A stretch of DNA of 64,000 bases, taken from a virus (taxonomy: Duplodnaviria; Heunggongvirae; Uroviricota; Caudoviricetes). Positions 44,232 through 44,783 of this stretch are shown here, piece after piece. Numbering within the stretch: position 1 is the stretch's first letter; each line of letters begins with the position of its first letter. A model generated the notes under the pieces. That model did no database searches, was not told where the DNA came from, and saw only the letters and a program-made list of their open reading frames with translations. The stretch lies in the IMG/VR virus record IMGVR_UViG_3300005573_001627. The stretch is one strand, 5' to 3'. The translations under genes were made by a program, and so were the position numbers.

Positions 44232-44783
44232 TATATATTTTGCAATATATATACTCTGCCATACTTCCAGACTTTCCAGGGGGGGGCTGTCTAGCCCCTA
44301 CGCGTTTCTATGGGGGTTACCCCTGGTGGAAAGTATGGAAGGCATGGATACAGAGCCTATAAGTGCCAATTTTGGGTACTTGAAATTCCAGGGTTTTTGA
44401 CTTTTTTTAGCAAAAGCGAAAGACTTTTTTTGAATTTGGGGGTTTTAGGCTCTAATCCACCCAAAAGTTCCCTTTGAGGGGTCTTTTTGTATAAAGTCAC
44501 GCAAAAACTTTCGCTTTTGTCATTTTTTCGTATAAAGTCACGTTTTTTTGAAAAGTATAAAGTTTTTCAAAAAACTCTCACTTTTCCGCAAAAAAATTGT
44601 TCCGATTTTTGGAACAATTTTCCTCATAGAACTTTTATTTTTTTCCATCTAGTCACAATTACTTTTTGTAGGAGCCTTTATACAGACAAACCTTGGAAAG
44701 GTTGGAAGAATTAGTTGACTATTTTTGAGTCTATATATAAAGTCACAACAATCTTTATAAAGTTACACATTTTGTATAAAGTC
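44232..44783 (+). repeat. noncoding island: G/C hairpin cluster (44255-44345) plus >=6 TATAAAGTCAC iterons
   Basis: motif at 44490, 44531, 44557(var), 44735, 44759(var), 44776 and again 45299; C-rich composition unlike surroundings. Confidence 0.55.

Follow-up and report, generated by a model that had tools for sequence, protein, structure and literature searches.

The 64,000-nt stretch of DNA analysed here, called the window throughout (IMG/VR record IMGVR_UViG_3300005573_001627; part of an element at least 130 kb long), contains at positions 44232–44783 a gene-free island that we consider, from sequence comparison and at slightly better than even chances, to be the cis-acting replication-origin region of an archaeal mobile element or virus. 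The core of the island is a 90-bp inverted repeat (44258–44347) in which tandem arrays of a 9-bp unit face each other in opposite orientation about 40 bp apart. An inverted repeat of this kind is found near the gene for the primase-polymerase (PrimPol)–superfamily 3 (SF3) helicase in 12–13 further sequence types, whose proteins are 34–89% identical to that of the window. An earlier sequence-only reading had proposed an origin here and had connected it with the PrimPol-helicase gene; the occurrence of the repeat near that gene in about a dozen diverged relatives supports this idea, but the parts of the origin have had to be reassigned and the GC skew has no inflection at the island.

The island is a 552-bp gap between the stop codon of the gene at 43812–44231 and the ATG of the gene at 44784–45221. 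It had been described as noncoding, and the gene callers of two public sources indeed place no gene in it, while the two open reading frames (ORFs) that extend into it (44167–44400 and 44487–44714), already noted for atypical composition and lack of a Shine-Dalgarno sequence, have frames broken by many insertions and deletions relative to a related locus (L072). The 150 nt from 44241 to 44390 have a C content of 0.22 and a GC content of 0.48 against a mean C content of 0.12 for the window, and a non-systematic reading of the ORF list agrees with the claim that this is the only C-rich noncoding stretch, in that other equally C-rich 150-nt windows sit in long ORFs. The island is 100% identical across the four copies compared and gave no match in a blastn comparison with 50,697 phage records.

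The long imperfect inverted repeat seen in the sequence-only reading consists of a left arm GCCATACTTCCAGACTTTCCAGGGG (44258–44282), made of tandem 9-nt units in the TTCCAG orientation, and a right arm CCCCTGGTGGAAAGTATGGAAGGCATGG (44320–44347), in which the units GGTGGAAAG and TATGGAAGG are followed by CATGG. The arms pair over 22 nt at 82% complementarity in a repeat search. Between them lies an interior of 37 nt (44283–44319) with 59% GC, hypervariable in sequence and conserved in length, which holds the G/C mini-hairpins GGGGGGCTGTCTAGCCCC and GGGGGTTACCCC. These hairpins had been proposed as part of the origin core together with the inverted repeat; the arms are kept in close relatives but the hairpins are not. 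With a score of 30 against 21–26 in shuffled sequence this is the best ungapped inverted repeat in the window, which taken alone is only modestly above chance, and its significance rests on the relatives.

Relatives were chosen through their PrimPol homologues, of which more than 1,200 scored below 1e-30 among 8,000 candidates, and whole loci of 10–22 kb were scanned for inverted repeats by script, by repeat search and by eye; the sample compared comprises 16 sequence types. In most relatives the inverted repeat lies 2–341 nt past the PrimPol gene. The distance from the end of the gene or of the match is 2 nt in L146 (56% PrimPol identity; 23/24 pairs), 5 nt in L139 (58%), 7 nt in L147 (51%; one arm degenerate), 12 nt in L143 (50%; 25/26 pairs), 14 nt in L144 (59%), 16 nt in L148 (52%), 85 nt in L149 (34%; 27/27 pairs), 120 nt in L136 (74%), 200 nt in L140 (57%; inverted relative to the gene), 341 nt in L142 (57%) and 1.5 kb in L137, which is the same as L006 (73%). 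L072 and L008 likewise carry the repeat. In L140, L142, L143, L144, L146, L149 and L072, as in the window, it outscores every other inverted repeat of the locus. The island of L072 lies about 3.5 kb past a DEAD-box helicase gene, and L138 shows this DEAD-box gene coming after the PrimPol gene in elements of that type.

Other search routes were less productive. The 139-aa gene upstream of the island, used as an anchor, returned only identical copies and the two short contigs L007 and L008, in which this gene is 62–64% identical; these were the first informative relatives and the first evidence of a variable interior. A pattern scan of metagenomes gave at least 119 stretches, and among the matches listed the right arm was present as well only in L031, L072 and L082, which are one type. 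Matches to the G/C hairpin or the left arm in a microvirus (L001) and in a high-GC phage contig (L009) were set aside as chance. The two-arm pattern matched seven times in 185,579 reference genomes, each time by chance in coding DNA, and not at all in viral contigs. As a separate observation, a perfect 27-nt inverted repeat (AAAGCATATACTACAAGATATATGTTA) at 5924–5950 and 6093–6119 of L136 brackets the whole origin-like unit, and L137 has a shorter bracket (CAATGTATA / TATACATTG).

In every lineage the arms are built of two to three tandem 9-nt units, and the unit sequences are unrelated between lineages. The window has GGTGGAAAG then TATGGAAGG, L140 has GACAGACTA then GACAGAAAA, L143 has ATTTAATGG then ATTTAATAG, L147 has three copies of TAGTCGGGT, and L149 has two to three of TTTTAATGG. 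Pooled over the arms, self-identity is 0.65 at period 9 and at most 0.31 at the other periods from 4 to 13, with 0.30 ± 0.023 in shuffled arms. The spacer between the arms is 35–52 nt in all lineages, with an interior GC content of 0.25–0.59. Within a lineage all copies of the unit change in concert, including extra copies that lie outside the stem (at 44692 in the window, 5897 in L136, 9483 and 10059 in L139, and 14023 in L140). The arm-to-arm pairs number 186 Watson-Crick, 10 G.T, 2 A.C and 40 others, so that 77% of the mismatches are non-wobble, and RNAalifold applied to six homologues finds the long stem only, with an unfavourable covariation term (+1.59). Rfam searches at the gathering threshold over the window and at permissive settings over 44100–44900 gave nothing credible, only weak sub-threshold matches, and ARAGORN called no tRNA or tmRNA. 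The arm periodicity, the unpaired extra copies, the concerted change, the spectrum of mismatches, the RNAalifold result and the lack of an Rfam or tRNA match together favour a DNA element bound by protein over an RNA helix under selection. The repeats that resemble iterons are the tandem 9-nt units within the arms, and probably not the TATAAAGTCAC boxes to which that role had been given.

The same data bear on a different reading, which we regard as rather unlikely: that the core encodes a structured noncoding RNA some 140 nt long, from 44258 to near 44400, with an AT box at 44232–44239 as promoter and the T-runs as its end, whose long conserved closing stem presents a hypervariable apex, as a guide, decoy, copy-number or primer RNA might. 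A G+C-rich island in a genome of 31% GC is a classic sign of structured RNA, and the minimum free energy (MFE) z-scores (+ strand, −2.4 to −2.6; − strand, −3.5) go in the same direction, as do the TATA-like box about 26 nt before the stem, the runs of five and seven T that follow ATTCCAGGG in the window and L072, and the presence in the element of genes for a CCA-adding enzyme and an RNA ligase. A conserved stem with a variable interior of constant length would suit a variable-loop RNA. The excess of G.T over A.C among the arm mismatches (10 to 2) is also what an RNA helix would give, but it is expected from a G- and T-rich + strand, and most mismatches are not wobble pairs at all. Pairing leaves the 9-nt periodicity of the arms and the extra copies outside them unexplained, RNAalifold and Rfam give no help beyond the long stem, the T-runs are missing in L136, L137 and L140, and the unit of L140 is inverted relative to the direction of the gene. 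Still more doubtful is a related proposal in which transcription of the repeat yields an RNA hairpin with a role in replication or defence, which would be a new RNA class associated with archaeal PrimPol-helicase elements. A protein of the element would then bind the conserved 22-bp stem, and elements that are otherwise identical would differ through exchange or diversification of the fast-evolving 40-nt apical cassette; the RNA might prime replication or control copy number, or it might be a guide that can be programmed, or a decoy.

The interior is where closely related copies of the island differ. Conservation among the window, L008 and L072 extends to the AT-only palindrome, the two arms and the right flank, and the approximately 117 nt to the right of the interior are 100% identical between L008 and L072, while the 39-nt interior itself (480–518 in L008, 6265–6303 in L072) is almost wholly different. 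This points to localised hypermutation or cassette exchange. If replication does start at the inverted repeat, initiation in the interior by a non-proofreading PrimPol might, speculatively, account for the fast change of the interior relative to its flanks. Three other identities for the repeat and its interior were ruled out: a CRISPR-like arrangement, as the flanking repeats are inverted and not direct; a C/D-box or H/ACA guide RNA, as the box motifs are absent; and a tRNA fragment or att site, as the interior has no tRNA features and is not conserved. There is likewise no sign of multiple genomic copies such as a mobile miniature element would have.

Further elements lie on either side of the core. 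On its left the 25-bp AT-only palindrome AATATATATTTTGCAATATATATA (44230–44254, unstranded) abuts the left arm and is kept in L008 and L072; it is a candidate for an easily melted segment, a TATA box, or both. In L136, as the perfect 27-nt repeat on its two sides, and in L143 (TATAATACTATATAATA), the inverted repeat likewise has AT-rich repeats next to it. The conserved right-hand flank (44348–44410, + strand) comprises a small hairpin, a copy of the unit (ATTCCAGGG, 44385–44393) and the T-runs noted earlier, which are at 44394–44398 and 44402–44408. Its ATTCCA is retained in L072, L136 and L137, and the motif AAATTTGGCATTT in L136, L137 and L140, with AAATTTGCCATTT as the variant of L072; three of the seven + strand copies of TTCCAG in the window lie here. 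Elements bearing TTCC/GGAA, the core of the unit, recur across the island, at 44385 and again in a small palindrome at 44596–44618 (ATTGTTCC-N7-GGAACAAT, unstranded), of which L072 keeps the stem and has a different loop (TTGTTCCAGAATCTGGAACAA). Farther to the right, at 44692–44709 on the + strand, is the unpaired extra copy of the double 9-nt unit (CTTGGAAAGGTTGGAAGA).

The gene to which the repeat is linked was correctly placed 4 kb upstream of the island in the sequence-only reading. It occupies 38080–40263 on the + strand and its product has Prim-Pol and DUF5906 matches in Pfam, the helicase being an SF3 enzyme of the D5/P4 type. The helicase and C-terminal part match the TIGR01613 model (P4-family primase C-terminal domain) above its cut-off, and the helicase part matches PDB entry 7ola, annotated as a DNA primase. 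An AlphaFold2 (AF2) model of the last 134 residues (encoded at 39859–40260; pLDDT 83) has winged-helix topology, and its best Foldseek matches are the RFX winged-helix DNA-binding domain (TM score 0.81 on the target), the C-terminus of the African swine fever virus (ASFV) PrimPol and winged helices of the Orc1/Cdc6 type, so that the C-terminal 80 or so residues are predicted to form a DNA-binding domain of winged-helix type. Conservation in residues 641–720 is 0.41–0.43 as compared with 0.73–0.77 in the helicase core. Lower conservation would be expected if this domain tracks the changing units, and the arm sequence does shift with PrimPol divergence, although this is a correlation only. Some relatives have LAGLIDADG-type intein or homing-endonuclease insertions in their PrimPol genes (L137 5821–9426; L138 8183–12499), which give products of 1,080–1,201 aa or are called as two parts.

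The comparison shows the architecture, its conservation and its linkage with the gene, along with the 9-nt periodicity and the predicted winged-helix fold; on the origin reading we infer both the protein that binds the units and the start of replication at the repeat. The C-terminal winged helix of the PrimPol-SF3 helicase would bind the 9-bp units, and the two oppositely oriented arrays would nucleate two helicase assemblies head to head. The interior, the AT-only palindrome or both would then be melted, or extruded as a hairpin, and the primase domain would begin DNA synthesis there.

The nearest precedent is the Sulfolobus plasmid pRN1, in which a stem-loop of approximately 100 nt downstream of the gene for a prim-pol/SF3 helicase/winged-helix protein is required for replication, tolerates relocation within the replicon, and is exactly the stretch that is not conserved between highly conserved flanks, with its structure kept (PMC4234260). 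The Bordetella phage BIP-1 has a comparable stem-loop after the homologous gene (the BIP-1/BPP-1 analogue), and the same authors proposed that proteins of this kind assemble at the stem-loop (PMC4234260). The window shares with pRN1 a protein that combines an archaeo-eukaryotic primase (AEP) prim-pol, an SF3 helicase and a predicted C-terminal winged helix, and an inverted repeat of 90 nt downstream of the replication gene, at 4 kb in the window. The arms are lineage-specific yet complementary, and the displacement of the window copy by 4 kb recalls the tolerance of the pRN1 stem-loop to relocation. The differences are that the arms here contain tandem 9-bp repeats with extra copies elsewhere, whereas pRN1 lacks iteron structure according to its authors (PMC4234260), and that hypervariability among close relatives is limited to the interior, with the arms conserved. 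In addition, pRN1 is a 5-kb crenarchaeal plasmid, while the present element exceeds 100 kb and belongs to AT-rich uncultured archaea with DPANN labels. On the origin reading the island would belong with the known stem-loop or iteron origins of PrimPol-SF3 helicase replicons, and the explicit 9-bp repeats would be the addition to the pRN1 model.

Explicit repeats would also bring the family closer to the alpha protein of satellite phage P4, whose winged-helix domain binds the repeats of the P4 origin before the protein unwinds and primes (summarised in PMC4234260). The TIGR01613 match and the predicted C-terminal winged helix are shared with P4 alpha, which is unlike the window protein in being a bacterial Toprim primase and not an AEP PrimPol. 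The P4 repeats are 8 bp long and spread across ori and the distant crr, and do not form a compact inverted pair of 9-mer arrays. The family also bears a resemblance to the core origins of SV40 and polyomavirus (large T antigen) and of papillomaviruses (E1), where inverted short repeats seat two SF3 helicase hexamers head to head, and a flanking AT-rich tract and palindrome melt first. Those repeats are of 5–6 bp and adjacent, without a spacer of about 40 bp, as opposed to 9-bp units here; they are bound through an origin-binding domain and not a winged helix, and the hosts are eukaryotic and not archaeal.

The origin recognition box (ORB) of archaeal chromosomal origins, to which Orc1/Cdc6 binds, is a further comparison, with CTTCCAGTGGAAACGAAAGGGGT as its consensus (PMC4153887) and TTCC and GAA as the cores of the Pyrococcus mini-ORB (PMC1904270). 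The core of the window unit, TTCCAG / GGTGGAAA with a G-run, resembles half of CTTCCAGTGGAAACGAAAGGGGT and shares the mini-ORB cores, and the inverted arrangement beside AT-rich DNA is also ORB-like. Unlike ORB origins, the arms are direct 9-mers and not a TTCCA-N-TGGAA dyad, and their sequence is wholly different in other lineages. A scan with Pfam, PHROGs or NCBIfam of 26 ORFs of the window, which took in only a minority of the approximately 140 small ORFs, showed no orc1/cdc6 gene. ORB-like sites were found 115–141 nt past the end of the PrimPol gene in L144 (6676), L146 (7345), L147 (4025) and L139 (9393), and those of L144, L146 and L147 are near-canonical and come right after the repeat. 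The L144 site agrees with 21/22 positions of TCTCCACAGGAAACGGAGGGGT, and TCTCCACAGGAAACGGAGGTGT is a near-canonical example; in L072 an ORB-like site (4802) lies 1.4 kb before the inverted repeat. The sites in L144, L146, L147 and L139 are independent support for an origin in those elements.

Several observations weigh against an origin at the island. No canonical ORB or ORB dyad is present near it, only half-site resemblance to either of the two published sequences used (PMC5376975, PMC4153887), and the G-rich end of the ORB-like sites in the relatives overlaps the ribosome-binding site of the next gene. The GC-skew analysis proposed with the sequence-only reading gave no change of sign and no inflection at 44 kb: the skew is positive (0.10–0.33) from 1 to 61 kb, and the cumulative skew rises through the island and has its sole inflection near 61 kb, where gene orientation flips. 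On the terms set with that reading this formally counts as a refutation, although the skew is dominated by the one-strand arrangement of the genes and so says little either way. The interior, at 59% GC in the window, is not a classic unwinding element; the 25-bp AT-only palindrome beside the left arm counts for an origin and is a candidate for such an element, in a genome that is 69% AT throughout. The repeat of the window is 4 kb from the PrimPol gene and does not adjoin it, none was detectable in L141 and only a weak one in L145. The linkage is also partly built in, since the repeat was sought only near PrimPol in loci chosen by PrimPol, although the scan spanned whole loci. In the lineage of the window and L072, the AT box about 26 nt before the left arm and the T-runs beyond 44393 would agree with a discrete transcript from the + strand. 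Finally, specific binding of the pRN1 replication protein to its own stem-loop could not be shown (PMC4234260).

That some other protein uses the island as a DNA site, for partition (a centromere-like site), packaging or recombination, appears improbable. Any DNA-binding protein that forms multimers could use short units repeated in both orientations, the element encodes a ParB-like protein (9878–10636), and L141 and L143 have integrase genes close to PrimPol; across lineages, however, the repeat tracks PrimPol and neither ParB nor integrase, and no integrase is nearby in the window. The core sites of tyrosine recombinases have spacers of 6–8 bp, as against 35–52 nt here, and the lack of any sign of multiple genomic copies is a further point against such a site.

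The boxes that the sequence-only reading had treated as iterons form a second layer in the right half of the island. Copies of TATAAAGT on the + strand start at 44490, 44531, 44556, 44736, 44756 and 44775, with a seventh at 45299; the six copies claimed for the island are thus present, some at positions 1–3 nt away from those first given (44557, 44735, 44759 and 44776). The window has 14 matches to TATAAAGT where 5.4 are expected, and seven of the nine + strand copies fall within 44490–45306; for TATAAAGTNNC there are six matches against 0.84 expected. The first three boxes (44490–44563, + strand) lie among T-runs and short inverted repeats, with T-runs directly after them, and their homologues in L072 include an inverted pair. 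The next three (44736–44782, + strand) are spaced by 19–20 nt with 44756 as the middle one, and the seventh, a TATAAAGTCAC box, is at 45299–45309 (+ strand). The boxes at 44756 and 45299 are exactly 28 nt before the ATGs at 44784 and 45327, respectively, the second of which had been noted before. Because two of them have this spacing the TATAAAGTCAC boxes read best as promoters, and of the two roles offered for them, promoter and origin iteron, the first is the better fit and the second probably does not apply. They are probably promoter boxes for the neighbouring genes and the downstream noncoding region, a layer separate from the origin. Other genes of the window have TTTAWAWA 35–50 nt upstream and a Shine-Dalgarno leader, and thus the boxes would mark a distinct promoter class; the spacing of the boxes at 44756 and 45299 suggests leaderless mRNAs.

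Among the loci compared, boxes of the form TATAAAGTYAC are confined to the lineage of the window and L072. The block TATAAAGTCACAAYAATnnTTATAAAG is kept in L072, where it runs directly into a G/T-rich repeat region and not into the gene with the PEF tail described below. The corresponding repeat region of the window, 46400–47200, has its own upstream TTTATAAAGGCAC at 46403, and therefore the four genes between 44784 and 46241 look like an insertion between duplicated promoter boxes. This region (+ strand) is the second large noncoding region of the window and contains seven to eight imperfect G/T-rich units of about 100 nt, each ending in a sequence like GGAGAAAAATCAAAAATCATATT. A homologous array directly follows the island in L072 (6770–7110), and L140 has an analogous 1-kb array (13416–14445) with the motif ACCGGCGTTT about every 100 nt. 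Such arrays might serve as a long leader, as an array of RNAs, or as one more repeat with a role in origin or partition function. Single G/T-rich units of 60–100 nt (GTnnTGTnnGG...) that resemble those of the array, each followed by a GGAG-type ribosome-binding site, stand upstream of many genes, among them those at 9408, 10757, 11290, 12837, 13313, 17509, 25798 and 48412, as a dispersed family of leader-like repeats.

In another reading the whole island serves expression control only, the hairpin being the 3′ end, terminator or mRNA stabiliser of the upstream operon and the remainder promoters and short terminators. The boxes 28 nt before two ATGs, the T-runs after the hairpin in the window and the position of the hairpin directly after the PrimPol stop codon in most relatives are consistent with this, yet we give it a low probability. 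Archaeal termination depends on oligo-T and not on long hairpins, and a terminator has no need of arms with 9-nt periodicity, a 35–52 nt spacer or extra copies. The window copy of the repeat stands after another gene, at a distance of 4 kb from PrimPol, and that of L137 is 1.5 kb away. In pRN1, moreover, the terminator is separate from the stem-loop, and only the stem-loop is needed for replication (PMC4234260).

The window sequence recurs in several metagenomes on contigs of up to 169.6 kb (the locus fetched is 129.7 kb), its G+C content is 31%, and all credible genes from 1 to about 60.5 kb are on the + strand. Some PrimPol homologues come from metagenome-assembled genomes labelled Pacearchaeota or Heimdallarchaeaceae, and therefore the element is taken to be archaeal, a large AT-rich mobile element or virus. 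A search of the large ORFs with PHROGs and Pfam found no virus hallmark genes, and the element may be a virus, a plasmid or an integrated element. Genes for an SPFH protein and an N6/N4 DNA methylase lie near the island, which is flanked by two small secreted proteins whose C-termini are PEFG-hydrophobic-RRR/RRK tails; these had been called PEF-CTERM paralogs, and the tails are present but the NCBIfam PEF-CTERM model scores below threshold. The element also encodes an S-layer-like protein, and a pyruvoyl arginine decarboxylase gene starts at 63455. The ParB-like partition protein (9878–10636, + strand; PHROG 1033, E = 2.7e-12) hints at plasmid-like maintenance.

Downstream of the PrimPol gene, at 40301–40337, is another hairpin, (G)AATAAATAAGAGAG-N7-CTCTGTTATTTATT(C), which in L072 (2719–2753) and L138 (15372–15406) is found downstream of the DEAD-box helicase gene instead. 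The Band_7 genes next to this AATAAATAAGAGAG/CTCTGTTATTTATT hairpin have an identical upstream string, AATTAATTAGATAAATAAAATG, that also precedes 24861 and 58787, and the hairpin region looks like a recombining intergenic module.

The window further encodes a class II CCA-adding enzyme (PolyA_pol head and HD) and an RNA ligase (6409–7440 and 56576–57628), which suggests tRNA repair or maturation; a CCA-adding enzyme again lies a few kb from the PrimPol gene in relatives (L138 513–2141; L140 6213–8636). Of interest given these two enzymes is a tRNA-like element at 9053–9175 (+ strand; MFE z = −4.45) that neither ARAGORN nor Rfam calls. Its parts are a stem GGGAGAG/CTCTCCT like that of an acceptor, a hairpin resembling a D-arm, a long arm of 12 bp without mismatch (TGATTAAGTATA/TATACTTAATCA) and the T-loop motif GGTTCAAATCC followed by a run of seven T, and it may be an intron-containing or aberrant tRNA. 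A second T-loop motif, GGTTCGATTCC, is at 17139–17149 (+ strand), just past the ORF at 16309–17100, and might represent the 3′ part of a tRNA or a remnant resembling att; the window has two such motifs where 0.12 would be expected.

Genes for PrimPol-SF3 helicases belong to the commonest replication genes in the mobile elements and viruses of archaea and bacteria, and to our knowledge the cis-acting origin of such a replicon has been tested genetically only for pRN1. If the origin reading is true, the signature described here, inverted tandem 9-bp arrays about 40 bp apart and usually just past the stop codon, would predict origins from metagenomic contigs of DPANN type, and would supply parts for vectors in archaea for which there are no genetic tools. 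The C-terminal winged helix of these proteins would likewise gain a concrete hypothesis for its binding site, and there would be a possible explanation of why the stem-loop of the pRN plasmids is not conserved although its flanks are.

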